Virus record (IMG/VR): IMGVR_UViG_2896028454_000001
Coordinates: 3,450-67,449 of that record
Length of the DNA stretch: 64,000 nt
Strand: one strand, 5' to 3'
Origin: a virus
Taxonomy: Duplodnaviria > Heunggongvirae > Uroviricota > Caudoviricetes
Below the pieces are notes generated by a model. That model was not told where the DNA came from and did no database searches. It was given only the letters and a program-made list of their open reading frames with translations. The translations under genes and the position numbers were made by a program. Shown here one piece after another: positions 38,925 through 62,380 of the stretch; the stretch's first letter is position 1; every line of letters starts with the position of its first letter.

Positions 38925-38932
38925 CTTTCCGC

Positions 38933-38975: not shown

Positions 38976-38993
38976 GGGGGAAGGGAAGCCCCC
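38976..38993 (+). promoter_or_regulatory. 5' stem-loop (GGGGG-AAGGGAAG-CCCCC)
   Basis: Same family. Confidence 0.5.
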
Positions 38994-39015
38994 GAACGGA
39001 CCACCAGGAGGAAAC

Positions 39016-39204: not shown

Positions 39205-39281
39205 CCCGCCCGGCCGCCCCCACCCCGCCCGGGGGCGGCCACCCTCCCCCCACCCACCAGCACCACCAGGAAGGCCCCACG

Positions 39282-39629
39282 ATGACCACCACCGGTCTGA
39301 TCACCCACACCGCCGACAGCATCCGCCGCTCCTACGCATGGGAGCTCATGGAAGAAGCCCGCCGCCAGCACAACGCCGCCCTCCGCGACCTGAACTACGC
39401 CCGCGCCCAGTACCGCACCCACGGCGGCGCGGAGAACGCCGCCGCCGTCCGCGAAGCCGACCGCCGATACCTGCTCACCCTCCGCGCCACCAACCACCAC
39501 GACGGCGAAGTTGCGTCCCTGTGCATGCGTGACGGGCTCGACCCCGACGCCGTGATCCCCGAGGTGGACGACAACTGCCCCACCTGCCACACCGAGGTTC
39601 ACGCCACCGGGTGCGCCTGCACTGACTGA
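39282..39629 (+). CDS. Hypothetical protein with C-terminal CPTCH...CAC zinc motif
   Basis: ATG after CCACCAGGAAGGCCCCACG. Preceded by a different hairpin (GCCGCCCCC...GGGGGCGGC). Confidence 0.5.
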   Translation: MTTTGLITHTADSIRRSYAWELMEEARRQHNAALRDLNYARAQYRTHGGAENAAAVREADRRYLLTLRATNHHDGEVASLCMRDGLDPDAVIPEVDDNCPTCHTEVHATGCACTD

Positions 39630-39643
39630 CCATCGCACGCCCC

Positions 39644-39669
39644 GGGGGCGGGAAGGGAAGCCCGCCCCC
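39644..39669 (+). promoter_or_regulatory. Stem-loop (GGGGGCGGG-AAGGGAAG-CCCGCCCCC)
   Basis: Same family. Confidence 0.5.
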
Positions 39670-39691
39670 ACCCACCAGAAAGACCACCACG

Positions 39692-40180
39692 ATGCCCAAC
39701 ACCCCCGCCGCCCGCGCCGAGTACCTGCGCCCCGAGTACGTCGGCCGCGACGGCGAACTGATCAGCTTCACTGACGCCGCCCGCCGCGCCGGGATCACCA
39801 GCGGTGCCCTTGCCAACTGGCGTCGCCGCCACGACGACTTTCCGAAGGTCGCGAAGCTCGTCCACTTCGGACCCAACCGCGCCCAGAAGTTCATCCCGAC
39901 CGCCGAGTTCGACGCGTTCACGGCCCGCCAGCAGCAGGGACGCCCCCGCCAGTACACCGGCCGCCGCCGCTCTTCCGCTGAGGTGGCTTCCGAGGAGCTG
40001 CGCTATTACACGGCCCGTGTAGAGGCTTTGGAAACCCGCGAGTCCGTCCTTGCCGCGAAGTTGGCCGAGACCGGCAACGCCACCGACGCGGCGAAGCTGG
40101 CCAAGACCCGTGAAGCCTTGGAGAAGGCGCGCGCCCGCGAGGTTGAGGCGGTTGACCGGCTCGCCTCCCTGATCTTCTAA
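39692..40180 (+). CDS. Putative HTH DNA-binding protein (162 aa)
   Basis: ISFTDAARRAGITSGALANWRRRHDDFPK helix-turn-helix-like. C-terminal coiled coil. Confidence 0.45.
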   Translation: MPNTPAARAEYLRPEYVGRDGELISFTDAARRAGITSGALANWRRRHDDFPKVAKLVHFGPNRAQKFIPTAEFDAFTARQQQGRPRQYTGRRRSSAEVASEELRYYTARVEALETRESVLAAKLAETGNATDAAKLAKTREALEKARAREVEAVDRLASLIF

Positions 40181-40192
40181 CCCGCCCCACCA

Positions 40193-40220
40193 GGGGGCGC
40201 GGAAGGGAAACCGCGCCCCC
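40193..40220 (+). promoter_or_regulatory. Stem-loop (GGGGGCGCGG-AAGGGAAA-CCGCGCCCCC)
   Basis: Same family, one loop substitution. Confidence 0.45.
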
Positions 40221-40244
40221 ACCCACCACCAGAACGGGAACCCG

Positions 40245-40592
40245 ATGCCGAAGCACCGCTACGACGAGACCTCAGTCCGCAACGCACTCGCCGTCGTCGT
40301 TGCCGACCACCCCGCAGACCACTTCGACCACAGGTCCACCGCGCCCGTAGCCGGGTGCCGATACATGAGCGCAGGCAAGCCCCAATGCGTCGTTGCGCAC
40401 GTCATGGTGCGCTTGGGAGTTAATCCCCGGACCGTGGCCCAGCTCGACAAGGAAGCCGATGGCGGGACGCCTGTCCGGCTGGTCGACTCCCGACACCCCA
40501 TCCTCAAGAGGTTCAGCCCTGAAGCTCTTGCGCTACTCGCAAGCTGGCAGTGGGCGCAGGACCGGGGTTACGGCTGGGACGAACTGACCTAA
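40245..40592 (+). CDS. Hypothetical protein (115 aa)
   Basis: ATG after CCACCAGAACGGGAACCCG. Confidence 0.5.
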   Translation: MPKHRYDETSVRNALAVVVADHPADHFDHRSTAPVAGCRYMSAGKPQCVVAHVMVRLGVNPRTVAQLDKEADGGTPVRLVDSRHPILKRFSPEALALLASWQWAQDRGYGWDELT

Positions 40593-40614
40593 CCACCAAC
40601 CGAACGGCAGTACA

Positions 40615-40640
40615 GGGGCGCGGAAGGGAAGCCGCGCCCC
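40615..40640 (+). promoter_or_regulatory. Stem-loop (GGGGCGCGG-AAGGGAAG-CCGCGCCCC)
   Basis: Same family. Confidence 0.5.
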
Positions 40641-40670
40641 GACCACCACCCATCAGGAAGGCACCACCCC

Positions 40671-41387
40671 ATGGACACCCACAACACCACCATCACCCGC
40701 GACAACACCGTGGACGCCTACAACGAACTCGACTACGCCGAGACGAACCTTGCGATCGCAACCGAGCTGCTGGCCGCACCGAACCCGTTCGAGGAACGCG
40801 ACCAGGCCGACGACATCCGGGCATGGTTCGAGGCCCGCGACGCGCACCGGGCCGCCCTGGTCGAGGTGGCCGTCTGCACGAACCTGTTCGGTGAGGAGTG
40901 CTCGGACGCCGGGTTGGACCTGGCCGAGGAGGTTGCGGAGTTCACCGACCGGGAGCTGATCGACTGTGCCCCCGAGGTGCCGGATGTGCCGGAGTTCTGG
41001 CCGCCGCGTGAGGGGGATGTGTGGATGACCAGTCAGGGGCGGACGTGGGTGGTGGACGGCGCGGACATGGTGGCGGAGGACACGGGGGAGGGGGCGGCGC
41101 GGAGGTGGGTTGCGTGGTTCCAGGGTGACGGGCCGGTGTTGCTGTGGCGTGGGGGTGGGTGCTTCCTGTGGGTGCCGGTGTTGCGGGAGCGGTTCCCGGT
41201 GGGTGCGCGGGTGACGGGCCCTGTGGGGCAGCAGGGGACGGTTGCGGAGCCTCCGGCGGAGGAGGCTGGGTCGGGTGTGGTGGGCCCGTGGTGGCCGTCT
41301 GGCGGGGTGCTGGAGGGGTCGCATGTGTGGGTGGTGGTGGACGGTGAGGAGTCGGGGGTGTGGGCTCCGGTGTCGCATCTGGGGTAG
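40671..41387 (+). CDS. Hypothetical protein (238 aa)
   Basis: ATG after CATCAGGAAGGCACCACCCC. Confidence 0.5.
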   Translation: MDTHNTTITRDNTVDAYNELDYAETNLAIATELLAAPNPFEERDQADDIRAWFEARDAHRAALVEVAVCTNLFGEECSDAGLDLAEEVAEFTDRELIDCAPEVPDVPEFWPPREGDVWMTSQGRTWVVDGADMVAEDTGEGAARRWVAWFQGDGPVLLWRGGGCFLWVPVLRERFPVGARVTGPVGQQGTVAEPPAEEAGSGVVGPWWPSGGVLEGSHVWVVVDGEESGVWAPVSHLG

Positions 41388-41439
41388 ACGGGTGCGCCGG
41401 GCCTGGTGGGAACAGAGTCCGTTTTAGTCCTGGTTTGGG

Positions 41440-41469
41440 CTTGCCGACCGGTTAGAGTTCGTGTAATAT
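41440..41469 (+). promoter_or_regulatory. Cassette promoter copy 5
   Basis: TTGCCGaccGGTTAGAGTTCGTGTAATATT. Confidence 0.45.
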
Positions 41470-41472
41470 TAT

Positions 41473-41506
41473 GGGTGTTGGGAGGGAAGGGAAGCCCGAC
41501 CAACAC
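41473..41506 (+). promoter_or_regulatory. Stem-loop with duplicated loop motif (AGGGAAGGGAAG)
   Basis: GGTGTTGG...CCAACACC stem. Confidence 0.45.
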
Positions 41507-41537
41507 CCACCACGAACCCTGACCGAAAGGACCCCAC

Positions 41538-41714
41538 ATGGCCGCCACCCGCACCGCCACCCCGACCGCCGCCCCCGTCATCGTGGCCGAGGTCGACGAC
41601 TTCTGCCCCGAGTGCGAGGAAGCGCAGGCGGAGGGTTACAGCGGGTGCGGTGAGTGCGGCGCCCCCGACGAGCGGTGGGAGGTGACCACCCCCTCCGAGG
41701 TGTGGGAGGTGTAA
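41538..41714 (+). CDS. Small zinc-ribbon protein (58 aa; not in the ORF track)
   Basis: Hand-translated MAATRTATPTAAPVIVAEVDDFCPECEEAQAEGYSGCGECGAPDERWEV. Confidence 0.4.
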   Translation: MAATRTATPTAAPVIVAEVDDFCPECEEAQAEGYSGCGECGAPDERWEVTTPSEVWEV

Positions 41715-41722
41715 CCCCGCCC

Positions 41723-41745
41723 GCCGGGGGGTGAAATTCCCCCCG
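41723..41745 (+). terminator. Terminator-like hairpin CCGGGGGG-TGAAATT-CCCCCCGG
   Basis: 8-bp stem after the stop of the zinc-ribbon gene. Confidence 0.4.
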
Positions 41746-41753
41746 GCTTCGAC

Positions 41754-41783
41754 TTGCAAAGCGGTTAGAGTTCGTGCAATAAT
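41754..41783 (+). promoter_or_regulatory. Cassette promoter copy 6
   Basis: TTGCAAagcGGTTAGAGTTCGTGCAATAAT. Confidence 0.5.
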
Positions 41784-41792
41784 AAGGACATC

Positions 41793-41812
41793 GGCGGGAA
41801 GGGAAGCCCGCC
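41793..41812 (+). promoter_or_regulatory. Stem-loop (GGCGGG-AAGGGAAG-CCCGCC)
   Basis: Same family. Confidence 0.5.
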
Positions 41813-41832
41813 CCAACCACCAGGAGAACCAC

Positions 41833-41940
41833 ATGGCCACCACCGACCAGCTCAACGACTACGACGACGACCAGGCGTATGGCCCCGAGTGGGAGTGTGA
41901 CGACTTCTGCGACGCCAACCCCACCTGGTGCATTCACTAG
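41833..41940 (+). CDS. Tiny acidic Cys-containing protein (35 aa)
   Basis: MATTDQLNDYDDDQAYGPEWECDDFCDANPTWCIH. Confidence 0.35.
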   Translation: MATTDQLNDYDDDQAYGPEWECDDFCDANPTWCIH

Positions 41941-42001
41941 CGCCCCCGGGGGCCGGAACCCACCGGCCCCCACCCCCACCCCACACGGAAGGCCGACCCC
42001 G

Positions 42002-42199
42002 ATGACCTGGAACCAGCTCCCCGCCGACGCCCGCCACCTGATCGCCCGTGGCCACGACCACATGATGGCCGCCGCCGGACTCGCCCTCCCCGACCGTGAC
42101 CCCGAAGCGGTTGCCGAATGGGACCGCGCCCGCGCCCTGTTCGACCAGGCGTGCGAGGTGTTCGGTATCACCCCGGACGAAGCCCTCGACCACCTGTAA
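42002..42199 (+). CDS. Hypothetical protein (65 aa)
   Basis: ATG after ACGGAAGGCCGACCCCG. Preceded by a hairpin with a different loop. Confidence 0.4.
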   Translation: MTWNQLPADARHLIARGHDHMMAAAGLALPDRDPEAVAEWDRARALFDQACEVFGITPDEALDHL

Positions 42200-42227
42200 C
42201 CCCGGGGGCTCCGGCCCCCACCCCCGG

Positions 42228-42246
42228 GCCGGGAGGGAAGCCCGGC
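42228..42246 (+). promoter_or_regulatory. Stem-loop (GCCGGG-AGGGAAG-CCCGGC)
   Basis: Same family. Confidence 0.45.
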
Positions 42247-42273
42247 ACCCCACCACCAGAAAGACACCCCGCC

Positions 42274-42984
42274 ATGGACGACCGCACCGCCGACCGCATC
42301 GACCGATACACCGAGTACGCCGCCAAGGCCCGCGGCCGCGCCCGCGCCGCCTACGCGGCCGGAGACACCCACTCCGGGCGGTTCGCCGGGGGACAACCCA
42401 TCCTCCGCGGCCACCACTCCGAGAAGTCCGCCCGCCGCGCCCGAAACCGGTCCGACGCCGCCATGCGCCGCGCCATCGAAGCCGAGAGGGCCGCGAAGTA
42501 CTGGGAGCACAAGGCCAACGCCGCGCGCCGCCGGGAGGAGCAGAAGCACAACCCCGGGGTGATCCAACGCCGTATCGTCCGCCTGGAGGCCGAGCAGCGC
42601 GAGATCACCCGCCGCCGCGCCGACGCCAAGGGCAACGCCGAGTACGCCGCCCAGCTCGACGCCCGCGCGGACGAAGTCACCGCCCAGCTGGCGGAGAACA
42701 GGGCCGAGCTCGCCGAGTCGGGGACGAAGGTGTGGGGGAAAGCCGACTTCGCCCGGGGCGACTTCGTGTTCTGCGACGGCATGTGGTGGGAGACGAAACG
42801 GGTCAACGCCCGGTCGGTGACGGTCGCCGCGGTGGTCGGGTTCACCCACGCCCGTGCCCGGGTTGGCGGGAAACGGGTGTACCGGCTGGCGGACAACCCT
42901 TACGACTGGACGGACACGATCCCGTACACGAAGGTCACCGGTCGCATGTCGGCCGCTGATATGGCCGCGCGGCTCGCAGGGTAG
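42274..42984 (+). CDS. Hypothetical protein (236 aa), helical basic middle region
   Basis: ATG after CCACCAGAAAGACACCCCGCC. Confidence 0.5.
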   Translation: MDDRTADRIDRYTEYAAKARGRARAAYAAGDTHSGRFAGGQPILRGHHSEKSARRARNRSDAAMRRAIEAERAAKYWEHKANAARRREEQKHNPGVIQRRIVRLEAEQREITRRRADAKGNAEYAAQLDARADEVTAQLAENRAELAESGTKVWGKADFARGDFVFCDGMWWETKRVNARSVTVAAVVGFTHARARVGGKRVYRLADNPYDWTDTIPYTKVTGRMSAADMAARLAG

Positions 42985-43085
42985 GGGCGGCCCCGGCGCA
43001 CCCCGGTTAGGGTTCGGTTTCTTTCTCTGGTCGGGGTGTGTGGGGTCGTCTTCGAGGGTGCGCCATTTTTGCTTGTTGATCCGAC

Positions 43086-43115
43086 TTGCAAACTGGTTAG
43101 ATATCGTGCAATAAT
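43086..43115 (+). promoter_or_regulatory. Cassette promoter copy 7
   Basis: TTGCAAactGGTTAGATATCGTGCAATAAT. Confidence 0.5.
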
Positions 43116-43150
43116 AGGGGTGTTGGTCGGCGGAATCCCGCCCCAACAAC

Positions 43151-43170
43151 CCGGGGAAGGGAAGCCCCGG
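43151..43170 (+). promoter_or_regulatory. Stem-loop (CCGGGG-AAGGGAAG-CCCCGG)
   Basis: Same family. Preceded by a second long imperfect hairpin at 43117-43152. Confidence 0.5.
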
Positions 43171-43198
43171 CCCACCCGCCACCAGAACGGAACCCACC

Positions 43199-44401
43199 AT
43201 GACCCTCACCCACGAAGACGCCCGTCTCCTCACCGGCCTCGAAGTCGCCACCACCCGCGCCACCCTCACCAACGCGCTCACCACCGTGGCCGTCGCCATC
43301 CACACCCGCCCCGCCGTCCCCATCCTCGCCGGGGTCCACCTGACCGGCGACGCGGACGGCACCCTCACCCTGACCGGGTTCGACTACGACACCGCCGTCA
43401 CCGTCACCCTCCCCGGCGTGGCCACCAACCCCGGCCGGGTTGTCCTCTCCCACGCAGAGCTGGCCGGGCTGCTCGCCGCGACCGCGAAGGGCACACCCGC
43501 GAAGAAGGCCGGGGCCGCGCCCGTGGTCTTGGCCCAGAACGGCAACAAGCCGACCTTGACCGTGGACGGGTACACCCTGCCGGTCGCGGACTACCCCGTG
43601 GACGAGTACCCGACCCTGCCCACGGCGCCCGCGCCCACGCTCACCGTCGACGCGGCCACGTTCGCGGCGGAGGTGGCCCGTGTGGTGCCCGCCGCCGGAG
43701 GGGCCGACGACATCCCCCAGTTGGTGAACGTCCAGTTGGAGACGTACACCAGGGGCGCCTTGTGCCTTACCGCCACCGACCGGTACCGGATCGCTCAGGC
43801 CACCATCCCGGGCACCCGCGCCCCCCGCGCCCCCCGCGCCGACCTCGGCCAGGTCGTGCGCGTCAACGCCGCACTGGTCGGCAAGGTCACCAAGCACCTG
43901 AAGGGGGACACCGTCACCGTTGGGGTGCACGGGGACATGGTCATGCTGGCCAGCGGGCCCGTCACGGTGGTCACCCGCACCAGCGAGGATGAGTTCCCGG
44001 CCGTGGAGAAAGCCATCCCCACCACCATCCCCATGTCGGTGACCGTGGATCACAAGGCGGTGGCCGCCGCGATCACCAAGGCGGGCAACATCCTGGCGGC
44101 GAAGGGTGAACGGGGCCTGTCGGTGGGTATCACCGTCAACCCGGGGTCGGTGGCGGTCGCTCCGGACCTGCCCGGTGTCCTCGCCCCGCAGATCACCGCT
44201 GACACGTCCGATGCGGACGGTGAGGTGTCCGTCTACTTCAACCCGAAGTTCCTCGCGGCGGCGGTGGGAGCGTTCAAGAGTGAGGACACGGTGACGTTCC
44301 ACCTGGACACGCCGACCCGCCCGGTCGTGGTGACCGGCGGTGGGCACACCGTCAAGTCCGCGCCCTACCGCCACCTGGTGCAGCCGATCAGGGTCCACTA
44401 G
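43199..44401 (+). CDS. DNA polymerase III beta sliding clamp-like protein
   Basis: N-terminus LTNALTTVAVAIHTRPAVPILAGVHLTGDADGTLTLTGFDYDTAV matches the DnaN N-terminal domain. 400 aa, consistent with three clamp domains. Confidence 0.7.
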   Translation: MTLTHEDARLLTGLEVATTRATLTNALTTVAVAIHTRPAVPILAGVHLTGDADGTLTLTGFDYDTAVTVTLPGVATNPGRVVLSHAELAGLLAATAKGTPAKKAGAAPVVLAQNGNKPTLTVDGYTLPVADYPVDEYPTLPTAPAPTLTVDAATFAAEVARVVPAAGGADDIPQLVNVQLETYTRGALCLTATDRYRIAQATIPGTRAPRAPRADLGQVVRVNAALVGKVTKHLKGDTVTVGVHGDMVMLASGPVTVVTRTSEDEFPAVEKAIPTTIPMSVTVDHKAVAAAITKAGNILAAKGERGLSVGITVNPGSVAVAPDLPGVLAPQITADTSDADGEVSVYFNPKFLAAAVGAFKSEDTVTFHLDTPTRPVVVTGGGHTVKSAPYRHLVQPIRVH

Positions 44402-44479
44402 CCCCCCGAGCGCGCGCGGCCCCGCCCCGCTCGGGGCCGCGCCCCCGCCCCCTCCCCGCACCAGAACAGGACCCCCGTC

Positions 44480-45256
44480 ATGCGCACCCTCACCGAACTC
44501 CCGCCCGTCGTCCACAAGCCCGGGGACACGATCCTCGCCCGGCACTGGTTCCGGTGGGCCCCCGCGACCATCCTCGAAACTGTGGACCGGCCCGCGACGA
44601 ACCTCGCCGGGGAACCGACCGGCGGCCAGTTGCGCGGGTACATCGTCCGGTTCCTGCCCGGTGGTCTGGTGGACTCCCGGCTCACCACCGAGGTCAAGGA
44701 GTTCCCCCGACTCGACCCGGCCCGGTACCCGCTCCGGCAGACGCGCGCTCTGGTCGCCGCGTTCCGCACCTTCCCGGCGGTGTTCCCGACCACCGGCCCC
44801 GAGCGGGTGCACCCGGCGACGTTGCGCGCGTTGGCCCGCCGCGGGTTCGCCGCCCAAGCGCCGGGCGGGGTGTGGGAGGCAACCCGGGCGGGGCGTGACG
44901 CGTTCCTGGCGCTGGTGCCGGTTACGGCGGCGTGGGAGTTGGTGAGGGCGGACCTGCCCGCGGACGGTGACCTGTACGAGGCCGCTGGGCGGTGGGTGGG
45001 GGTGATCGGTGACGCGCAGGCGCGGGTGCGTGAGGTGGCGGCCGAGGCGGGGGAGTTCATCCCGCACCTGGTGACGGTGGCCCGGGTGGAGAACGTGAGC
45101 CGGGGGTGGTCGTCGAACGGGGCGCATGAGCGGTGGATCAGTCGGCCTGTGTGGTGGGTGCGGTGTCATACGTGCGGGCATGTGGTGGCGGTTGACGGTA
45201 CGGCTGGGGCTGCGCGGGCGCGGGGGGAGAGGGCGGCGCATCTGGTGGTGGGGTGA
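44480..45256 (+). CDS. Hypothetical protein (258 aa)
   Basis: ORF. Confidence 0.5.
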   Translation: MRTLTELPPVVHKPGDTILARHWFRWAPATILETVDRPATNLAGEPTGGQLRGYIVRFLPGGLVDSRLTTEVKEFPRLDPARYPLRQTRALVAAFRTFPAVFPTTGPERVHPATLRALARRGFAAQAPGGVWEATRAGRDAFLALVPVTAAWELVRADLPADGDLYEAAGRWVGVIGDAQARVREVAAEAGEFIPHLVTVARVENVSRGWSSNGAHERWISRPVWWVRCHTCGHVVAVDGTAGAARARGERAAHLVVG

Positions 45257-45263
45257 TCCCGAT

Positions 45264-45293
45264 TTGCCAACTGGTTAGAGTTCGTGTAATAAT
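45264..45293 (+). promoter_or_regulatory. Cassette promoter copy 8
   Basis: TTGCCAactGGTTAGAGTTCGTGTAATAAT. Confidence 0.5.
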
Positions 45294-45295
45294 AA

Positions 45296-45333
45296 GGGTG
45301 TTGGGGCGGAAGGGAAGCCGCCCCAACATCACC
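45296..45333 (+). promoter_or_regulatory. Stem-loop (..TTGGGGCGG-AAGGGAAG-CCGCCCCAA..)
   Basis: Same family, extended stem. Confidence 0.5.
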
Positions 45334-45352
45334 CCACCAGAAAGGCCACCCC

Positions 45353-45655
45353 ATGTCCGTCAACTTCAACAACGGCACCGACTGCGTCAACTTCTCCAAC
45401 ACCAACGCGGTCGCCGTCCTGCGGGCCCTCGGCATCGAGCCGTTCGACGAGTGCGGCGACCTGTACGGCCAGATGGGCGGCGCGGAGTTCCGCGAGCGGG
45501 TCATGCTTGCCCTGGCCACCGACGCGCAGGTGGCTTCCCCCGGGTTCGAGGACCGGGGGTGGGCGCACGTGGGCCGGTCGGCGACGTACATGCAGGAGAG
45601 GCTTCCCGAGTTGGCGGAGCTGTCGCGGGGGGCGGGGGAGGTGTGGTGGGGGTGA
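45353..45655 (+). CDS. Hypothetical protein (100 aa)
   Basis: ATG after CCACCAGAAAGGCCACCCC. Confidence 0.5.
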   Translation: MSVNFNNGTDCVNFSNTNAVAVLRALGIEPFDECGDLYGQMGGAEFRERVMLALATDAQVASPGFEDRGWAHVGRSATYMQERLPELAELSRGAGEVWWG

Positions 45656-45666
45656 CCCCGCCCGCC

Positions 45667-45689
45667 GGGGGCGGGAAGTTTTCCGCCCC
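45667..45689 (+). terminator. Terminator-like hairpin GGGGGCGGGAA-GTT-TTCCGCCCC
   Basis: Hairpin after the stop, before a promoter copy. Confidence 0.4.
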
Positions 45690-45693
45690 TGGC

Positions 45694-45723
45694 TTGCAAG
45701 CCGGTTAGAATTCGTGTAATAAT
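45694..45723 (+). promoter_or_regulatory. Cassette promoter copy 9
   Basis: TTGCAAgccGGTTAGAATTCGTGTAATAAT. Confidence 0.5.
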
Positions 45724-45732
45724 AGAGGCATC

Positions 45733-45756
45733 GGGGGCGGAAGGGAAGCCGCCCCC
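45733..45756 (+). promoter_or_regulatory. Stem-loop (GGGGGCGG-AAGGGAAG-CCGCCCCC)
   Basis: Same family. Confidence 0.5.
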
Positions 45757-45778
45757 CACCACCAGAAAGGACCCGCCC

Positions 45779-46006
45779 GTGACCACCACCAACCTCCCCC
45801 TCGCCGACATCGAAGCCATCAACACCCTCCCCCGCCAGGCCCTCCTCGACATCGGCGAAGCCGTCGACCTCATCGGAGAGGTCACCGAAGACATCGCCGA
45901 AGGCTTCGGCGACCCCAACGACCTCACCGCCTACACCAACCGCCTCCACCTCCTCTGTGCCGAGAACAACATCAACCCCGCCGCCGCCCTCTACACCTTC
46001 GCCTAA
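45779..46006 (+). CDS. Hypothetical acidic protein (75 aa)
   Basis: GTG after CCACCAGAAAGGACCCGCCC. Confidence 0.5.
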   Translation: MTTTNLPLADIEAINTLPRQALLDIGEAVDLIGEVTEDIAEGFGDPNDLTAYTNRLHLLCAENNINPAAALYTFA

Positions 46007-48930: not shown

Positions 48931-49021
48931 GGGAGTGCGCCGGAGATGGAGCGCCGGAGCTGGCTGTAACCCAGTGACCCCTTTCGCGGGTTAGGAGGTT
49001 CGAGTCCTCCCACTCCCACCA
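48931..49021 (+). tRNA. tRNA-Tyr (anticodon GTA), class II with long variable arm, encoded CCA
   Basis: Hand-folded. Acceptor GGGAGTG/CACTCCC. D-arm CCGG/CCGG with GG. Anticodon stem GCTGG/CCAGT. Loop CT-GTA-AC. T-arm GGAGG-TTCGAGT-CCTCC. About 91 nt. Coordinates +/- 1. Confidence 0.6.
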
Positions 49022-49042
49022 CCCCGCCCACACGCGGGGCCT

Positions 49043-49118
49043 ATGCGGGTAGCTCAACTGGTAGAGCAGCCGCCTCCAAAGCGGCCGGTTGCGGGTTCGA
49101 ACCCTGCCCCGTATGCCA
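49043..49118 (+). tRNA. tRNA-Trp (anticodon CCA), encoded CCA
   Basis: Hand-folded. Acceptor ATGCGGG/CCCGTAT (one G-U pair). D-arm GCTC-AACTGGTA-GAGC. Anticodon stem GCCGC/GCGGC. Loop CT-CCA-AA. T-arm GCGGG-TTCGAAC-CCTGC. 76 nt. Confidence 0.75.
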
Positions 49119-49777: not shown

Positions 49778-50293
49778 CTACTTGCGCAACACCTTCTCCA
49801 TGCGCGCTTTCCGTTCCGCGTGCTCGGCCTCGGTGATCTCACCGTCCGCCAACATACGATCCAGCTCGCCGAACGCGTCCTGCGCGGCCTGCGCGAGCTT
49901 ACCCCCCGGGGCGCCCACGGCCTTGTCCCGCCAGGTGCCCACCGGCCCCCCGCCCGGGTTGAGGACCGCCTGCTCCAACTCGCGGGCACCGGATATCACC
50001 TTGAACGTCCGGTCGCCCCCAGCGGTGTGAAGGGTGATCTTCCCGCGCCCGCGGTCAACCCCAGCGACGGGCAACGCCACCGACGACGTCGAGGTGCGGC
50101 CGAACATGCCGGCGGACACGAACAGCAGGCGCCGGTTCGTGGCCACAGCGACACCGTTTTTCCCGTCTAGGTTGACGGCCCCGGCGGCGTTCACGGTCTC
50201 GTCCGCGCCCAGCTCGGTTTCAGCGGCGGCCAACGCCTTCTTCAGGAGAGCGAACCCGCCTACCCCTGTGGCCCGTTCGAGGTCTTCACGCAC
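49778..50293 (-). CDS. Bacterial PH-domain-like protein with a C-terminal SHOCT motif
   Basis: C-terminal LADGEITEAEHAERKARM matches the SHOCT pattern (L..G.I...E...K...L). Central beta-rich region. Confidence 0.45.
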   Translation of the reverse strand: MREDLERATGVGGFALLKKALAAAETELGADETVNAAGAVNLDGKNGVAVATNRRLLFVSAGMFGRTSTSSVALPVAGVDRGRGKITLHTAGGDRTFKVISGARELEQAVLNPGGGPVGTWRDKAVGAPGGKLAQAAQDAFGELDRMLADGEITEAEHAERKARMEKVLRK

Positions 50294-55888: not shown

Positions 55889-56005
55889 CCCCACCCCCCT
55901 ACCAGGGGCACCACCCCCCGGGCACCCCACCCACCCCGGGGTCACCCCGCACCCAACCCCCGCAGCCCGGGGACACCACCCGCCGAGAGGGGAGGAGAAC
56001 ACCCC

Positions 56006-56536
56006 GTGCGCCACCCCTGCCCCACCCCCGGGTGCCCCCACACCACCCCCACCCGAACCACCCGGTGCGACCACTGCACCCGACGCACAGGACGAGCACA
56101 CCGCATCACCCTCGTCTGCGGGCCACCCTGCGCCGGGAAGAACACCTACGTCACCCAGCACGCCCAACCCGGCGACCTGGTCGTAGACCTCGACGCCCTC
56201 TACCGCGCGATCAACGCCAACCCCACCCGGGCCGACCACGACCAACCCGCCAGCCTCACCCCCTTCGCCCTCGACGCCCGCGACACCATCCTCCACCGGC
56301 TACTCCACGGCGACCACAACCTCCGCGCCGCCTGGATCATCCACTCCGCACCCAACCCAGCGACGCGAGCCGAATGGAAAGCTCGCGGCGCAAAAGTCGT
56401 GATGATCAACGCGAGCCTGGACACGCTCACCCACAGGGCACACCGGCAGCGCCCCACCGCATGGGTTGATCACATCCACGACTGGCACCGCCGCTACCAG
56501 CCCGGCCACGTCGACCAGACAGTCACCACCGGGTAA
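56006..56536 (+). CDS. P-loop NTPase, polynucleotide-kinase-like (AAA_33-type) with N-terminal zinc ribbon
   Basis: Walker A LVCGPPCAGKNTYV followed by DLVVDLD. N-terminal CPTPGCPH...CDHC. Confidence 0.5.
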   Translation: MRHPCPTPGCPHTTPTRTTRCDHCTRRTGRAHRITLVCGPPCAGKNTYVTQHAQPGDLVVDLDALYRAINANPTRADHDQPASLTPFALDARDTILHRLLHGDHNLRAAWIIHSAPNPATRAEWKARGAKVVMINASLDTLTHRAHRQRPTAWVDHIHDWHRRYQPGHVDQTVTTG

Positions 56537-56735
56537 CCACCCCCACCACCCCACCCCCACACAACCCGCCCCGTAAAACCGCAGGTCAAAGCCCGAACCC
56601 CACCCCGGCACCCCACCCAAGGGGGGAGGGGGGTTCAAATCGCTCTGACCTGGGATAACGCCGGGCGCGCGGGTGACTCTCTGAGCACGCCGACGAGTTT
56701 CCCGAAAAATATCCGGCCGGAAGGAGGTGGCGGCC

Positions 56736-57227
56736 GTGGGCAAGCGAGGCCCCCGCGAGAAACCCACCTCCCTCAAGCTCCTCGACGGCACCCGCCGCGA
56801 CCGGATCAACACCGACGAACCCCTCCCCGGGCAGGGCACCATCGCCCCGCCCGGGTGGCTGGTCGCTCTCCACAACCAGGCCGACCCCGCGTCCCCCTAC
56901 GAAACCGCCCTGGACGTGTGGAATCGGCTCGCCCCCGACCTCGAAGCGAAGATGGTCCTCACCCCATGGGATGTCGACACGTTCGCGGTGTGGTGCGACG
57001 CCGTTGTCCGCCACCGCGAAGCCGTTGACGAGATCACCCAGTACGGGGTCATGGTCGTCGGCCAGAAGGGCGAGCGGGTCAAAAACCCGGCCGTCCAGAT
57101 CGCCCGCGACTACGCGGAGACGATGACCCGCATCGGTGCCCGCTTCGGCCTCACCCCCTCGGACCGTGCCGGTCTGAAGATCGACCGGGAGGAGGTCAGG
57201 GGTGGAGCCGAACGATTCCTCTCCTGA
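56736..57227 (+). CDS. Terminase small subunit (P27-family-like)
   Basis: KGERVKNPAVQIARDYAETMTRIGARFGLTPSDRAGL is typical of the P27 small terminase family. Immediately upstream of the large terminase, with overlap. Confidence 0.7.
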   Translation: MGKRGPREKPTSLKLLDGTRRDRINTDEPLPGQGTIAPPGWLVALHNQADPASPYETALDVWNRLAPDLEAKMVLTPWDVDTFAVWCDAVVRHREAVDEITQYGVMVVGQKGERVKNPAVQIARDYAETMTRIGARFGLTPSDRAGLKIDREEVRGGAERFLS

Positions 57228-58914
57228 CCTGCCCGCGTGCTCCTGGACCCATGACGGCCTGACCTGCCCCGAGCAGGGCAACCACTTCTGTACCCCGCGC
57301 GCGAACCACGCCCAGGGGTTCATCGAAGAGGTCCTGGTGCACACCAAGGGCACCTACGCGCGCAAGCCGTTCATCCTCACCGACTGGCAGCGCGACGACA
57401 TCGTCCGGCCCTTGTTCGGGCAGGTTCGCTGGTCCGACGAGTACCAGGACTACGTCCGCCAGTACTCCACGGCGTGGATCGAACTGGCCCGCAAGAACGG
57501 CAAGTCCGAGATCCAGGCCGCGATCATGCTGTACCTGCTCGTGGCGGACGGTGAGGAAGAAGCCGAACTGTACGGGTGCGCCCGCGACCGCGACCAAGCC
57601 AGCCTGGTGTTCAACGTCGCCAAGCGCATGGTGCAGCTCTCACCGGTGCTGTCGCGCCGGTTGCAGGTCAAGGACGCCAACAAGCGCATCGTGGACCCGA
57701 AAACCGCGTCGTTCTACCAGGTGATCGCCGCCGACGCGGCCGGAGCCCTGGGCTACAACCCGCACGGGGTTGCGGCCGACGAGATCCTGGCGTGGCGCAA
57801 GCGGGACCTGTGGGACGCCATGGAGACCGGTATGGGTTCGGGGGCCCGCCGACAGCCGTTGATGATCGCGGCGACCACCGCAGGCAACGACCCGACCAGC
57901 TTCGCGGCGAACATGCACAACGAGATGCAGCGCATCTTCGACATGCCGGACCGGTCGGCGCACACGTTCGTGTACCTGCGCAACACCCCGGAGGACGCGG
58001 ACCCGTGGGATGAGGCGACGTGGAAGATCGCGAACCCCGCCCTGGGGGACTTCCTGTCGATCGAGAAGTTCCGGCAGGCCGCATCGGACGCACGGAACGC
58101 CCCGGAGAAGGAGAACGCGTTCCGCCAGTTCCGTCTCAACCAGTGGGTGCGCCAGTCCACCCGGTGGATGCCCATGCACCTGTACGGGGAGAATCCCGGC
58201 GAGGTGTGGTCCCACCCGGACCAGGCGCGCGAGGAGCTGGCGGGCCGGGAAGCCTACGGCGGCCTCGACCTGTCCGCGAAGTTCGACCTGACCGCGTGGT
58301 GTGTGCTCCTTCCCCCGGAGGAGAAGGGCGGCCCGGTCGATGTGCTGTGGCGGTTCTGGTTGCCCGAGGACGCCTTGCCGAAGCTCGACGAGGAGAACGA
58401 CGGCGCGTTCACCCGGTGGGCTGAACAGGGCTGGTTGACCATCACCGAAGGCAACATCATTGACTACGACCGGGTGTACGAGGACATCGGCGAGGACGGC
58501 GAACACTTCGCGTTCCGTGCCGCGCACGCCGATGAGTGGTCGATGTGGCCGGTCATCAACAAGGTCGCGGACCTTACCGGCCTGGACCCGGAAGAGGGCG
58601 AGATCGTCGCGTACAAGAACACCTACGACCGGATGACGCCGGGGTTGAACGAGGTCATGGCGTTGGTGAAGACCCGCCGGTTCGCGCACCACGGCAACCC
58701 GGTCGCGTCGTTCTGCTTCGACAGTGTCGAGGTGCGGCGCGCCCCGTACAACCCGGACCTGATCCGCCCGGACAAACCGGAGCGGGACAAGTCCGGGAAG
58801 CGCATCGACGGTGTTCCGGTGGCGGCGATGGCCGCGAACGCGATGGTCCTCAACGCCGACACCGGCGAGGGTTACCGGTCCGCTTACGAAGACCGCGGCC
58901 TCACCGTCGCCTAA
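57202..58914 (+). CDS. Terminase large subunit
   Basis: 570 aa. ATPase region then nuclease region with conserved acidic residues. Standard position before portal. Confidence 0.9.
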   Translation: MEPNDSSPDLPACSWTHDGLTCPEQGNHFCTPRANHAQGFIEEVLVHTKGTYARKPFILTDWQRDDIVRPLFGQVRWSDEYQDYVRQYSTAWIELARKNGKSEIQAAIMLYLLVADGEEEAELYGCARDRDQASLVFNVAKRMVQLSPVLSRRLQVKDANKRIVDPKTASFYQVIAADAAGALGYNPHGVAADEILAWRKRDLWDAMETGMGSGARRQPLMIAATTAGNDPTSFAANMHNEMQRIFDMPDRSAHTFVYLRNTPEDADPWDEATWKIANPALGDFLSIEKFRQAASDARNAPEKENAFRQFRLNQWVRQSTRWMPMHLYGENPGEVWSHPDQAREELAGREAYGGLDLSAKFDLTAWCVLLPPEEKGGPVDVLWRFWLPEDALPKLDEENDGAFTRWAEQGWLTITEGNIIDYDRVYEDIGEDGEHFAFRAAHADEWSMWPVINKVADLTGLDPEEGEIVAYKNTYDRMTPGLNEVMALVKTRRFAHHGNPVASFCFDSVEVRRAPYNPDLIRPDKPERDKSGKRIDGVPVAAMAANAMVLNADTGEGYRSAYEDRGLTVA

Positions 58915-59528
58915 TCCGCCGGTACGAGGATGGATCGGAGCATCGCACCGGCCGGGGTCAGAACGAACCGGTCGCCTTCCTGCGTGTACGCGAAGCCCTT
59001 CAACGCGGTGTCGGGCACCTGCTCGGCCGTGTCGTCCTGGAACGCGTCCAGCTCGGCACGGTGGGGGAGTACCGGCATCTGGTTGATGGGCATGTTCACC
59101 GGCCCGTCCTGCCACGCCCACACGCTCACCATCGGACGTAGCTCTTGGAGAGCGCCGGCCGCGTGGAGCACGTGTGCGTCCAAGCTGCCACCGTCGTTGG
59201 GCACGTTGATGGTGATCGGCCAACGCGGCGTGTGATCGTGCAGCAACCGCAGGAGCGCGCCCATTTGCCGCCATGGCCCGTTGGTGAACTCGGCCAGATC
59301 GAGCAACACCAGCGACCTCAGGTCGATGGTCGGGCCGAGGTGGGTGTCAGGAGTGATCTCGTGTAGGACCTGCTCGGGTTCCTCGCCTTTGTGTGCCAGG
59401 AACGTCTCCATGGCGGTGTCCTTGTCGGCTGCCCCGTTCACCCCAACCACAATTAGGGGTTCTGCGGGGGCCACGGCCACCATTGGGACGCCGGACTTTT
59501 CGTTCACCAGCATCACATGGACTGACAA
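58911..59528 (-). CDS. Hypothetical protein (205 aa), minus-strand insert
   Basis: Protein-like composition. Convergent with the terminase gene. Confidence 0.5.
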   Translation of the reverse strand: MSVHVMLVNEKSGVPMVAVAPAEPLIVVGVNGAADKDTAMETFLAHKGEEPEQVLHEITPDTHLGPTIDLRSLVLLDLAEFTNGPWRQMGALLRLLHDHTPRWPITINVPNDGGSLDAHVLHAAGALQELRPMVSVWAWQDGPVNMPINQMPVLPHRAELDAFQDDTAEQVPDTALKGFAYTQEGDRFVLTPAGAMLRSILVPAD

Positions 59529-59647
59529 CAGGGGCCTCCGCTCACAGGGGTTTCAGGGGGTTCCAGAGTCCTTCTCGGACAGTAGCGGACCCCACCAGCG
59601 CCCACCACCGGTTCGGCCAGTCCAGGCCGCTTTCTAGAACCGCGGGC

Positions 59648-60232
59648 TCACTGTCGCGTGACGAACCGGCCTTTGCCTCGCACGACCGTGACGAGCCCGG
59701 CCCCTTCCAACGCCGCGAAGGCGTGCCGGGCCGTCATCCGCGACACCCCGTACTCACGCTGAACATCCGCCTCGGACGGCAGCGCGTCATCCGGGGCCAG
59801 CTCCCCGCTGGTGATCCGCCTCCGTAGATCACGGGCGATCACCCGGAACGGTGCGCTCGCCTTCACCGGCAACTCCCCGCGCTCCTGGGCGGTGCACACC
59901 ACACGGCCCGAACCCGGGCGAGCCCGAACCCGGCGGTCCTTCTCCAACTCCGCCAGCGCCCGCCGAACGGTCGTGCGCGACACCCCGAACTCGGCCATCA
60001 ACGCCGACTCGGACGGGACCGGGGCCCCTGGGGTGAGCTGCCCCGACTCGATCCGGGCGGTCAGCTCCTTAGCGATCGCCCTGTAGGTGCCCCACTCCGC
60101 CCGCTGCCCCGACACGCTCATGCGCCCAACGTACCGGGCCAACCCAACCAGAGAAGGGGGGTGGCCCGCGTTGTTTGCCTGGCTCCGCCTGCTCCTCCGC
60201 CGTGAGGTCGTCGTGAACCTCCACGACGGCAC
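59648..60232 (-). CDS. Tandem GntR-type winged-HTH transcriptional regulator (no effector domain)
   Basis: Two copies of the GntR HTH signature: ALMAEFGVSRTTVRRALAELEKDRRV and ADVQREYGVSRMTARHAFAALEGAGLV. Confidence 0.6.
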   Translation of the reverse strand: MPSWRFTTTSRRRSRRSQANNAGHPPSLVGLARYVGRMSVSGQRAEWGTYRAIAKELTARIESGQLTPGAPVPSESALMAEFGVSRTTVRRALAELEKDRRVRARPGSGRVVCTAQERGELPVKASAPFRVIARDLRRRITSGELAPDDALPSEADVQREYGVSRMTARHAFAALEGAGLVTVVRGKGRFVTRQ

Positions 60233-60386
60233 GGGATTCCGCGGGGTCCTCTACCGCAAGGCCGGTGGCCTCGTGGAACTCCGCAACGCCGAACGCCTCG
60301 AACCCGGCCTGCCACCGGCCCAGTGTGACGGGGCGGTCGTCCTCGAACGGTCCCAGATCCTGTTCTGGCAGGTGGTGCCGTCGTGA
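60171..60386 (+). CDS. Small hypothetical protein upstream of portal (TTG start)
   Basis: AGAAGGGGGG RBS 8 nt upstream of the TTG. ATGA overlap with portal. Confidence 0.35.
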   Translation: MFAWLRLLLRREVVVNLHDGTGFRGVLYRKAGGLVELRNAERLEPGLPPAQCDGAVVLERSQILFWQVVPS

Positions 60387-62380
60387 GCATCATCGTGTCC
60401 GGCGGGAAACTCGAACAGGTCCGCGACCACGGCGGGTACACGCTCCCGGCCGCGATCCAGCTCGGCAACACCTGGGTGGAGTACGGGCAGATCTTCGACG
60501 CCCAACCGCAGGTGCAGACCGTGGTGTCGTTCCTGGCGCGCAACATCGCCTCGTTGACGTTGCACGCCTACGAACGCCGGTCCGACACCGACCGGGCCCG
60601 GCTCACTGACCACCCGCTCCCGAAGGTGCTCCGCAACCCGCTCCCCGGGCGGAAGCTCACCAGGTACCAGCTGTTCTACCGGATCGTCGCTGACCGGGCC
60701 ATCTACGACGACGCGTTCGTGGTCAAGCTCCGCGACGGCAACGGGAAGGTCATCGGCCTGCTGCCGGTACCCCGCCCGTGGGTGACCCCCGACAAGGGGA
60801 CGTGGATCGAACCCGCCGAGTACGTGGTGGCCGGGACCGTGCGTGTCCCGGCTGAGGACATGATCCACCTGCACGGGTACGCCGTCGACTCGCTGTGGCA
60901 CGGCACGTCCCCGATGGGGGCGCTCAGGAACATCCTCCTGGAGGAGTACGAGGCGAACCGGCACCGCCAGCAGATGTGGCGGAACGGGGCCCGCACCTCC
61001 GGGTTCATCCAGCGCCCGCAGATGAAGGGCAAGGACTGGTCGGAGGAGGCCCGCACACGGTTCCAACGCGAGTTCCGTGACCTGTACACCGGGGAAGGCG
61101 CAGACGCCGGAGGGGTGCCGGTCCTGGAAGACGGGATGACCTACGTCCCGGCCGGGCTCGACCCGCGGGCAGCCCAGTACATCGAGGCGCGCAAGCTCAC
61201 CCGCGAAGAGGTCGCCGCCGCTTACCACATCCCGCCCCCGTTGGTGGGCATCCTCGACCACGCCACGTTCTCCAACATCCGTGAGCAGCACAAACAGCTG
61301 TACCAGGACACGTTGGGCCCGTGGCTGGTCGACATCGACGAGGCGTTGGAGATCCAGCTCGTCCCCGAACTCGCGGACCCCGACCTGGTGTACCTGGAGT
61401 TCGACATCCGGTCGAAGCTGAACGGTGCGTTCGAGGAACGGGCCGCCGCCGCATCGTCGGCTGTGGGTGCCCCGTGGATGACCGTGAACGAACAGCGGGC
61501 GTTGGACAACCTGCCCGCCATCCCCGGCGGGGACGAACTGATCACCCCGCTCAACGTGACCAAGGGCGGGCAAGCGTCCCCCCGCGACTCGGCGCCGGAC
61601 CCAGCGGACACCGCGAAGACGACCAACCCGCCCCGGGTGAAGGCCCGCACCGTCCACCTGAAGATGGCCCCGCCCGAACACGCGGTGAACCAGGCGGAGA
61701 AGGAGCTGGCCCGGTTCTTCGACCGGCAGGCCCGCTCCCTCAGTTCCCTGCTCGGCGCTGCGAAGGCCCGCGGGCACCTGACCAAGGAGTCCGCGGCCTC
61801 GGTGAACTGGGACCGGTGGGAGGGCGAACTGGCCCTGGTCCTGACCCAGGTCAACCTGGCCACCGCCGCGCAGGCCGCTCGCGCCGCGTTGGAGGAGATG
61901 GGTGCCGACCCGGCCGACTACGACCCGGAGGCCACCGCGTTGTGGCTGATGGACAACGCGGCTGCGCAGGCACAGGCGACCACGGACACCTCCCGTATCC
62001 AGGTCGAGGAGGCGTTGGACGCGGAGGACCCGGCGGAGGCGTTGAAGGCCCTGTTTGCGGCGTGGGGGACGTCCCGTGCCGCTGAGTTGGCGCACCGCCA
62101 CACCCAGCACATCACCGGCTATACGTCGGTGAAGGAAGCCCGCAAGGTGTTCGGGTCCTCAGCGCGGAAGACGTGGCGGACCACGTCCCGCAACCCCCGG
62201 TCTTCGCACGTGCGGATGAACGGGCAGACCGTGCCGATCGACAGCAAGTTCTCTAACGGCGGCCGGTGGCCCGGCGACAGCCTGTTGTCCGCCCGTGAGG
62301 CCGCGAAGTGCAAGTGCATGTTGTCGATCACCGGCATCCCCGAAACCGACGATCCCGGCACCGTGCCGGACGAGGAGTAA
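60383..62380 (+). CDS. Portal protein
   Basis: 665 aa. Position after terminase. Conserved central portal region and acidic C-terminus. Confidence 0.85.
   Translation: MSIIVSGGKLEQVRDHGGYTLPAAIQLGNTWVEYGQIFDAQPQVQTVVSFLARNIASLTLHAYERRSDTDRARLTDHPLPKVLRNPLPGRKLTRYQLFYRIVADRAIYDDAFVVKLRDGNGKVIGLLPVPRPWVTPDKGTWIEPAEYVVAGTVRVPAEDMIHLHGYAVDSLWHGTSPMGALRNILLEEYEANRHRQQMWRNGARTSGFIQRPQMKGKDWSEEARTRFQREFRDLYTGEGADAGGVPVLEDGMTYVPAGLDPRAAQYIEARKLTREEVAAAYHIPPPLVGILDHATFSNIREQHKQLYQDTLGPWLVDIDEALEIQLVPELADPDLVYLEFDIRSKLNGAFEERAAAASSAVGAPWMTVNEQRALDNLPAIPGGDELITPLNVTKGGQASPRDSAPDPADTAKTTNPPRVKARTVHLKMAPPEHAVNQAEKELARFFDRQARSLSSLLGAAKARGHLTKESAASVNWDRWEGELALVLTQVNLATAAQAARAALEEMGADPADYDPEATALWLMDNAAAQAQATTDTSRIQVEEALDAEDPAEALKALFAAWGTSRAAELAHRHTQHITGYTSVKEARKVFGSSARKTWRTTSRNPRSSHVRMNGQTVPIDSKFSNGGRWPGDSLLSAREAAKCKCMLSITGIPETDDPGTVPDEE

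Follow-up and report, generated by a model that had tools for sequence, protein, structure and literature searches.

What are two minus-strand genes doing between the packaging and head genes of a phage genome whose surroundings are transcribed from the other strand? The locus lies in a 64,000-nucleotide window of a tailed phage (Caudoviricetes; IMG/VR record IMGVR_UViG_2896028454_000001, positions 3,450 to 67,449), to which all coordinates given without a locus handle refer. Here, 1.3 kb of antisense DNA follows the gene for the large terminase subunit (TerL) and holds two open reading frames (ORFs). One, called orf205, encodes a protein of 205 amino acids (aa), and the other encodes a protein built of two GntR-type winged helix-turn-helix (wHTH) domains. 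A preliminary description of the DNA treated the pair as one insert and put forward the GntR protein as a candidate immunity repressor, or as a regulator expressed in the prophage state. The explanation that best accounts for the locus as a whole, held here with moderate confidence, is that the two genes are independent morons, one for a trans-acting GntR protein and the other for a CARF-like protein that would bind cyclic oligoadenylate (cOA).

Layout of the locus

Scans of ORFs, Pfam, and PHROG confirm the gene order first described, namely TerL (+), the 205-aa ORF (−), the GntR ORF (−, 59648-60232), and portal (+). TerL (57202-58914, +), a protein of 570 aa with the Pfam domains TerL_ATPase and TerL_nuclease and a match to phrog_9 (E 4e-132), forms the left border of the cargo slot. 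The next gene, orf205 (58911-59528, −), meets terL tail to tail, the two stop codons overlapping by 4 nt. The NCBI call for its start is ATG 59513 (200 aa); the alternative, TTG 59528, from which 205 aa are counted, has the sequence GGAGG (59539-59535) 6 nt upstream. The tandem GntR gene most likely starts at ATG 60121 and encodes 157 aa (59648-60121, −), not the 194 aa first proposed, because the NCBI annotation places the start there and all homologues have lengths of the 157-aa type. The extension found in the 194-aa frame merely mirrors a gene on the opposite strand.

This opposite-strand gene, separated from the GntR ATG by a spacer of 49 bp (60122-60170), is a small conserved head-module gene of about 71 aa from TTG 60171 (~60171-60386, +; frame open from 60087). 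It matches phrog_6750 (E 1.3e-17), and its 3ʹ end overlaps the start of portal (60383-62380, +; 665 aa; Pfam Phage_portal E 4.5e-81; phrog_2662 E 7e-159). In the six viral relatives that are closest (L001-L006), and in three Nocardiopsis genome relatives (L018-L020), portal is directly preceded by the phrog_6750 gene. Since the 194-aa frame overlaps this conserved gene, the cargo slot is bounded by terL on the left and the phrog_6750 gene on the right. The antisense insert reported between TerL and portal is therefore present, but it does not abut portal.

Two independent cassettes in a variable slot

The window is a prophage of an HK97-like Nocardiopsis lineage, and a 253-kb contig of Nocardiopsis sp. 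FR26 has annotated proteins identical to its orf205 and GntR proteins. For comparison, the neighboring genes of TerL relatives were mapped in viral contigs and in genomes, each species being represented by one genome. In two of the viral contigs (L001, L003) the slot is empty, with only about 50-70 bp from terL to the small gene, so the insertion relative to related phages is borne out. Other relatives carry different cargo. The slot of N. codii (L018), whose TerL is 96% identical, contains the tandem GntR gene and an extra 79-aa ORF and has no orf205; that of Nocardiopsis sp. LOL_012 (L020) contains only an orf205 homologue, 66% identical. In Nocardiopsis sp. NRRL B-16309 (L019/L002) an unrelated minus-strand gene of about 212 aa (L019:8664-9377, −) occupies the position, and in three viral contigs (L004-L006) two other small minus-strand ORFs do so. 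In a decayed prophage (L031, SRR8901824_336, 7754-9120), all that is left is the final 220 codons of terL together with the GntR gene and the small gene. Both genes are thus variable cargo and not conserved in all relatives. Because N. codii has the GntR gene without orf205 and LOL_012 has orf205 without the GntR gene, the antisense stretch consists of two independent accessory cassettes in a recombination hotspot, not of one insertion of two genes.

Synonymous divergence (dS) is consistent with separate histories of the cassettes. Between the window and N. codii, dS is low for TerL (0.21) and higher for the GntR gene (0.52) and portal (0.54); the low TerL value indicates a recombination breakpoint at the border of terL and the GntR gene, the latter being a long-standing passenger of the portal side. 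Between the window and LOL_012, dS is 0.42 for orf205 and 0.65-0.73 for its flanks, which suggests that the orf205 cassette was exchanged more recently than the flanks. At the junctions, backbone homology, including that of the empty-slot contig L003, comes as close as about 12-17 nt to the GntR ATG, and the context TA(C/G)GTT-N6-ATG is common to the three GntR carriers (window, L018, and L031). Similarly, about 88 nt of 5ʹ leader are conserved with orf205 in both phage settings, the one with a GntR gene upstream and the one lacking it.

Some features of the relatives stand on their own. The slot gene of NRRL B-16309 has a GC content of 48-53% versus a background of 65-69%, and its product, which is without a Pfam match, has a hydrophobic N-terminal stretch; judged from where it lies and from its composition, the gene could be a moron for membrane-anchored exclusion or abortive infection. 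In N. codii, the inserted 79-aa ORF (L018 ~9180-9420, −) separates the conserved leaderless-type ATG from the GntR gene, and its TGA stop overlaps the GntR GTG start (GTGA). It has no detectable homologues and no similarity to the small ORFs found 5ʹ of GntR copies carried by the integrative and conjugative elements of actinomycetes (AICEs). The TerL of contig L003 contains an in-frame intein of about 340 aa with LAGLIDADG motifs (L003:4978-6000), which splits the Walker A motif (ARKNGK|SE), begins with Ala, and ends in HN|S. About 5 kb from the L031 prophage remnant lies a Cse1-like gene (type I-E CRISPR); the GntR gene in the remnant may have been retained by the host.

Both open reading frames are genes

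Long ORFs on both strands are common in DNA of high GC content, and the two ORFs might therefore be spurious frames within a noncoding spacer. The probability of this is practically nil. Both ORFs have the pattern of GC by codon position seen in genuine genes (GC3 of 0.83 and 0.87, with low GC2), and for both the ratio of nonsynonymous to synonymous divergence (dN/dS) is 0.40-0.52, below 1. Homologues of both exist at the protein level in other genomic contexts, the GntR domains are recognized by Pfam at E 3.5e-39, and the fold of orf205 is predicted confidently. On these grounds, the alternative is effectively refuted, and orf205 and the GntR ORF are real genes.

The tandem GntR protein and its relatives on AICEs

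The window protein belongs to the GntR family by its wHTH domains. Two stretches match PF00392 (the E value above is that of the whole protein), and Pfam finds nothing else, which confirms the earlier description of two GntR wHTH domains without a ligand-binding domain. The domains span residues ~9-75 and 88-155, are joined by a linker of about 12 residues, and are 45% identical to each other; the pattern PSE..L...GVSR.T.R.AL..L...G is conserved in both halves among 99 family members. Within the 157 aa there is no C-terminal effector or oligomerization domain and no match to FCD or UTRA, so that the C-terminal domains of the classical subfamilies FadR, HutC, MocR, YtrA, AraR, PlmA, and DevA are all absent. 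Scores against NCBIfam equivalogs are far under the cutoffs. A search of 5.8 billion proteins returned 210 homologues at E ≤ 0.001. Among the 120 matches listed, nearly all are 130-180 aa long with the two-domain layout, and those listed with a named source all come from actinomycetes. No tandem example was found in the PDB, where the matches are single wHTH heads of YvoA, DasR, and AraR. A family-wide search of viral contigs likewise found no further phage with a tandem GntR gene; it returned only single-wHTH proteins, along with one AICE-like contig (L052) that carries two adjacent, separate single-wHTH genes. In a neighbor-joining tree built without bootstrapping, the three phage copies group as a single clade inside the family.

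Outside phages, the closest settings sampled are AICE modules. Such copies are present in Nocardiopsis sp. FR26 itself (L028, 63% identical), LOL_012 (L029), Actinomadura formosensis (L030), and Allorhizocola (L033). These four loci share the order of a divergent HTH gene of 230-245 aa, small ORFs, the tandem GntR gene, an HD phosphohydrolase gene (missing in L029), a NUDIX gene, and FtsK/Tra. RepSA comes next in L028, L029, and L033, the module of L033 ending there, and Xis and Int are present in L028-L030. Of the remaining copies, the N. dassonvillei one (L037) is close to NUDIX and FtsK genes, a Streptomyces one (L032) shares its island with, among others, a PycTM gene and a DNA methylase, and one from a metagenome (L036) adjoins an IS66 transposase in no recognizable module. 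The cluster of HD, NUDIX, and regulator genes is known from AICEs as the mdp-nud-xre module, and in pSAM2 the conjugal immunity factor is Pif, a NUDIX protein (PMC2440964, PMC3218068).

AICEs and Streptomyces plasmids also encode GntR-type "kil-override" repressors, including KorSA of pSAM2, SCO3932, and ImpA/KorA (PMC2440964, PMC8584621). The window protein shares with these the GntR-type wHTH, and its homologues, like the KorSA-type repressors, are AICE-borne, accompanied by Tra, RepSA, Xis, Int, and NUDIX genes. However, the AICE repressors KorSA and SCO3932 are HutC-type proteins of 28 kDa composed of a wHTH and a UTRA domain (PMC8584621), whereas in the window protein, of about 17 kDa, a second wHTH takes the place of UTRA. 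Moreover, the tandem GntR genes of the sampled AICEs lie 5ʹ of the HD gene near NUDIX, not beside pra, and what is shared with the KorSA type, which has HutC architecture and binds its own promoter and that of pra, is the AICE location of the homologues. Because KorSA and SCO3932 are HutC-type, the tandem-wHTH protein apparently represents a different and uncharacterized architecture.

Split versions of this architecture are also found. On pMLP1 of Micromonospora (L035, CP058906.1), whose public record is unannotated, two single-wHTH GntR ORFs share a frame and are divided by a stop codon. This pair, a split or broken tandem GntR, adjoins a tyrosine integrase, and a KorSA-like GntR-UTRA protein is encoded 1.4 kb away; the coordinates concerned are 876-1616 (−), 2723-3484 (−), and 42034-43212 (+).

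In the AICEs, a direct repeat with a 10-bp period, AGACGTCCCnAGACGTCCC, is located in the divergent promoter region upstream of the GntR-containing operon. It is present in all four loci (L028:7142-7160, L029:7041-7059, L030:7159-7177, and L033:4804-4835, where it is degenerate), and in L030 it occurs again between xis and int (16083-16101). The copy at L028:7142-7160 (VWVX01000001.1) reads AGACGTCCCTAGACGTCCCT. The repeat is a candidate master operator of the AICEs and a candidate operator for the tandem-domain protein.

These observations fit a mechanism in which the phage gene was captured from AICEs. Its product would be a single-chain "pseudo-dimer" whose two winged-helix domains, in the absence of a ligand-binding domain, would bind DNA without a ligand. 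Made from the prophage on a leaderless mRNA, the protein would act in trans, most plausibly on host genes or on the promoters of AICE-type elements, whether resident or incoming.

Expression and comparison with other morons

Promoter-like features accompany each cassette. In the spacer 5ʹ of the GntR gene, a -10-like TACGTT (60133-60128) is positioned 6 nt before the ATG, an arrangement of the leaderless type, and an inverted repeat (60135-60145 and 60158-60168) belongs to the phage backbone. Conserved noncoding DNA (59529-59616, −) precedes orf205 and contains a -10-like TACTGT at 59584-59579; this block aligns with few mismatches to the region 5ʹ of the homologue in LOL_012, where the GntR gene is missing. 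The leader is a putative promoter and 5ʹ untranslated region of orf205's own. Expression of the regulator in the prophage state, as the preliminary description suggested, is plausible, given its orientation antisense to the late operon and the promoter-like -10 by its ATG.

Morons of lambdoid and HK97-like phages were reportedly described in 2000 by Juhala and colleagues and by Hendrix and colleagues. As in those cases, the cargo of the window separates two genes that are neighbors in related phages, its orientation is independent of the surrounding late operon, and each cargo gene appears to have its own upstream control region. The cargo varies among close relatives, one of which carries cargo of clearly foreign GC content. 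Unlike those morons, the slot has no detectable terminator in the window, where the orf205 stop overlaps that of terL; the promoters are inferred, and expression in the lysogen is putative. The locus is a moron hotspot of an already known kind, and its two cargo genes are unusual variants.

Immunity and local regulation

Whether the GntR protein could be an immunity repressor depends in part on the operators of the phage. The motif TTCGTG[TC]AA[AT] occurs at 10 sites in the window versus 0.08 expected. Its half-site overlaps the -10 of seven near-identical promoter-like elements (36730-45800), a family of the form TTGCaa-N18-TAATAAT followed by a GC hairpin and a ribosome-binding site. A perfect 24-bp palindrome, AATTCGTGTAAATTTACACGAATT, is present at an intergenic promoter-like site (7845-7868) and recurs near 21560, at another such site, with one half-site changed; the operator-like palindromes are also written TTCGTGTAAATTTACACGAA. 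The motif sites are probably early promoters and operators of the phage. At the prophage's left end, some 5 kb beyond the left edge of the window, the host genes (those for isocitrate lyase, a RamB-like regulator, and an acyl-CoA dehydrogenase) give way to a CI-like gene of 162 aa on the minus strand, with a weak HTH_3 match, and, divergent from it, an XRE gene of 107 aa. There, the same palindrome, truncated on one side (TTCGTGTAAATTTACACG; L042:6410-6434), abuts the XRE ATG opposite the CI-like gene.

An immunity repressor of the tandem GntR type, whether the only one or a second one, would act on the early-promoter palindromes and silence the prophage. Operators of the GntR family, reportedly described by Rigali and colleagues in 2002, are typically A/T-centered and of GT...AC form, and the palindromes have this generic form. 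Two wHTH domains per chain could read both half-sites, the antisense orientation fits expression in the lysogen, and temperate pMLP1 has its two in-frame GntR wHTH ORFs beside a tyrosine integrase. However, the GntR gene is missing from four relatives (L001, L003, L019, and L020) that have the same packaging and head backbone, and a conventional divergent CI-like/XRE pair sits exactly at the operator-bearing left-end switch. Neither the operator-like motif nor the palindrome is found near the GntR gene or elsewhere by the insert, and the gene has no space for an autoregulatory operator. Its nearest non-phage relatives, moreover, are AICE genes, as is the family otherwise, and the decayed L031 prophage keeps the gene with no early region nearby. 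While a CI-type repressor gene belongs to a switch region, divergent from a cro-like gene and with early operators, the tandem GntR gene is in the late region. Searches of viral contigs for relatives of the left-end repressor, the operator palindrome, and the promoter motif gave nothing usable for co-variation with the GntR gene. Taken together, an immunity function on the early palindromes is unlikely, and the GntR protein is probably not the prophage immunity repressor. The main repressor would rather be found in the CI-like/Cro-like pair with its palindromic operator at the left end.

A second alternative, less probable still, is that the GntR protein is a local regulator that controls its own gene together with the small gene-portal transcript or orf205, and so keeps late genes locked in the lysogen. 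With just 49 bp between the GntR ATG and the small gene, any promoter or operator there would be shared; orf205 is directly 3ʹ of the GntR gene, and its conserved leader contains the palindrome ACCGGT. Yet the spacer and its inverted repeat are phage backbone, being also present in the empty slot of L003, and the orf205 leader is unchanged in LOL_012, where the slot has no GntR gene. N. codii has the GntR gene without orf205, and late transcription presumably comes from terS-terL upstream. A trans-acting GntR protein directed at AICE-type or host promoters is the reading preferred here over both alternatives.

A predicted CARF-like fold for orf205

The preliminary description listed the 205-aa protein as unknown. 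It has no match in Pfam, PHROG, or NCBIfam, and sequence-profile searches against the PDB and Pfam returned nothing, but a specific prediction, a CARF-like fold, can now be offered. Homologues are few. One was found in the set of 5.8 billion proteins, and an exhaustive HMMER search added two, plus one doubtful repetitive match (P0125). The family loci are all on mobile elements: two prophage slots, namely those of the window and of LOL_012, a linear plasmid (145 kb) found in N. changdeensis and Nocardiopsis sp. MT53, and an island in which a serine recombinase and transposases are also encoded. CARF proteins have conserved motifs of the ligand pocket after strands β1 and β4 and a dimeric cOA-binding site; among the four members compared here, a Ser/Thr after the first β-strand is present in 4/4, and I-T-P is invariant, so that pocket motifs of orf205 are putative.

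AlphaFold2 modeled orf205 from an alignment of four sequences with a pLDDT of 80.5 and a pTM of 0.82. The model is a predicted CARF-type Rossmann-like fold followed by a C-terminal hairpin and helix. In Foldseek searches, Csm6 of T. thermophilus (TtCsm6) took the top 6 places (probability 0.90-0.97, E ~0.05), and alignments to Cami1 and SSO1393, CARF proteins with C-terminal extensions, extend over 157-163 residues. No significant match was found in the BFVD set of viral structures. A sequence model of PADLOC, CARF7--CARF_RelE, matches orf205 (E 4.1e-7) and its homologue in LOL_012 (E 0.007). From this model-based evidence, a CARF fold is considered probable with moderate confidence.

CARF7 includes the Crn1 ring nucleases. 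When 28,114 phage genomes were surveyed, AcrIII-1, Csx20, and Csx16 turned up, and no Crn1/CARF7 type was reported (PMC12409355). Genomes of Nocardiopsis reportedly contain CRISPR modules of type III-D that are accompanied by CARF accessory proteins (PMC6546367). A stand-alone CARF protein of a prophage would most simply be a sponge or a ring nuclease for cOA. Accordingly worded as a mechanism, orf205 would be a stand-alone CARF-like protein, Crn1-like by its CARF7 match and expressed under its own conserved leader, that binds cOA, sequesters or cleaves it, and blunts type III CRISPR signaling (III-D in this genus) or related cyclic-nucleotide signaling. An anti-CRISPR role of this kind is proposed only tentatively and is, on balance, doubtful.

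Known proteins offer partial parallels. The Crn1-type ring nucleases (Sso2081, Sso1393, Sis0811, and Sis0455) are linked to orf205 by the CARF7 profile and by similar size; enzymes of this type cleave cA4 without a metal, using conserved Ser and Lys residues. Unlike these and the Csa3-type CARF-wHTH proteins, orf205 resides on actinomycete prophages and plasmids and not within a locus of type III CRISPR. It has diverged too far in sequence for detection by PDB profiles, and its catalytic and ligand-binding residues, like its activity, are putative. The proposed removal of a cyclic-nucleotide alarm resembles what AcrIII-1 (DUF1874), phage Csx16 and Csx20, the viral SAVED ring nuclease, and the Tad and Acb sponges do. 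However, the fold of AcrIII-1 is unlike that predicted for orf205, and none of these viral cOA-degrading anti-CRISPRs or sponges has a detectable sequence relation to it.

Evidence against the proposed roles

Several results weigh against the picture of a cOA-binding orf205 and an AICE-directed GntR protein. For the former, the principal alternative is that orf205 is a generic Rossmann-like protein, such as a small enzyme or a nucleotide binder unrelated to cOA, and that the CARF match reflects convergence or artifact. The margin of CARF over generic Rossmann folds is small, Foldseek E values are 0.045 or worse, and the alignment behind the model is shallow: with two sequences in place of four, the pLDDT drops to 50 and the model is unusable. 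The sequence has no match in Pfam or the PDB, P0123 and P0124 have no CARF7 match, and no cas genes, cas10 included, were found near any of the five orf205-family loci, so that CRISPR association is lacking; the lack of a neighboring cas10 would be as expected for an anti-defense gene. On the other side, the alignments to Cami1 and SSO1393 span most of orf205, and the CARF7 profile is an independent sequence model that matches at E 4e-7. A generic Rossmann-like protein is accordingly a minority possibility, though one to be taken seriously.

For the GntR protein, AGACGTCCCnAGACGTCCC has 0 sites in the window, where single copies are fewer than expected by chance, and the repeat could equally belong to another AICE regulator. 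For the expression of both genes, a sigma-70 consensus scan of 58700-60500 found no promoter and no terminator, and no RNA structure beyond chance was found 3ʹ of orf205.

Other features of the prophage

The sampled ORFs of the window are mainly plus-strand early and replication genes. These encode a DnaC-like loader, DnaB, DpdA, a Thg1-like enzyme, exonucleases, a C5 methylase, an SPFH protein, and a DnaN clamp, and they are followed by genes for an HNH protein, an AAA_33 protein, TerS (56727-57227, +), TerL, portal, and an S78 protease. No integrase was found among the window ORFs scanned against Pfam, a scan that left many smaller ORFs outside, and Rfam gave no match in 56000-62000. By megablast, the region has no close cultured relative, the only match being a 76% portal stretch in Gordonia phages. 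A second ORF of 570 aa (1297-3009) raised the possibility that the window wraps around a genome of about 56 kb; this was rejected, since self-BLAST shows no similarity.

Four further features deserve mention. Some 380 bp 5ʹ of the genes for the DnaC-like protein and DnaB are tandem 15-bp repeats (GAAGAAGACGTAGTT twice and a partial third; 4275-4310), possibly iterons or an origin of replication. The DpdA homologue (E 6e-85) adjoins the Thg1-like protein, of the tRNA-His guanylyltransferase family (11121-12903), and suggests modification of the phage DNA with 7-deazaguanine. Two tRNA genes (Tyr-GTA and Trp-CCA; 48931-49118) are found within a 2-kb stretch without a coding-type ORF. Finally, a gene of 171 aa with bPH_3 and SHOCT domains and a match to phrog_2700 (49778-50293, −) runs against the mostly plus-strand genome and is possibly a further moron.

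Implications

Considered as a whole, the slot may be a locus of anti-defense and of conflict between mobile elements, in which orf205 would represent a new family of stand-alone CARF proteins of viruses and plasmids that sequester or cleave cOA, and the GntR protein an AICE-derived single-chain repressor without effector domain, by which the prophage could silence or shut out conjugative elements sharing its cell. This larger proposal is speculative and rather unlikely as it stands. If its predictions fail, the locus is an ordinary moron hotspot. If it is correct, the junction of terL and portal would be a practical place to find accessory and anti-defense genes, and the widespread, uncharacterized two-headed GntR architecture would gain a setting in the control of AICEs and in the traffic of genes into phages. 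A CARF-type protein acting against type III CRISPR is a class not reported in phage surveys. Its confirmation would mean that actinomycete phages turn a host-type sensor fold on type III CRISPR signaling, and it would add a new class of anti-CRISPR in bacteria in which the interplay of phage and defense has been little studied.

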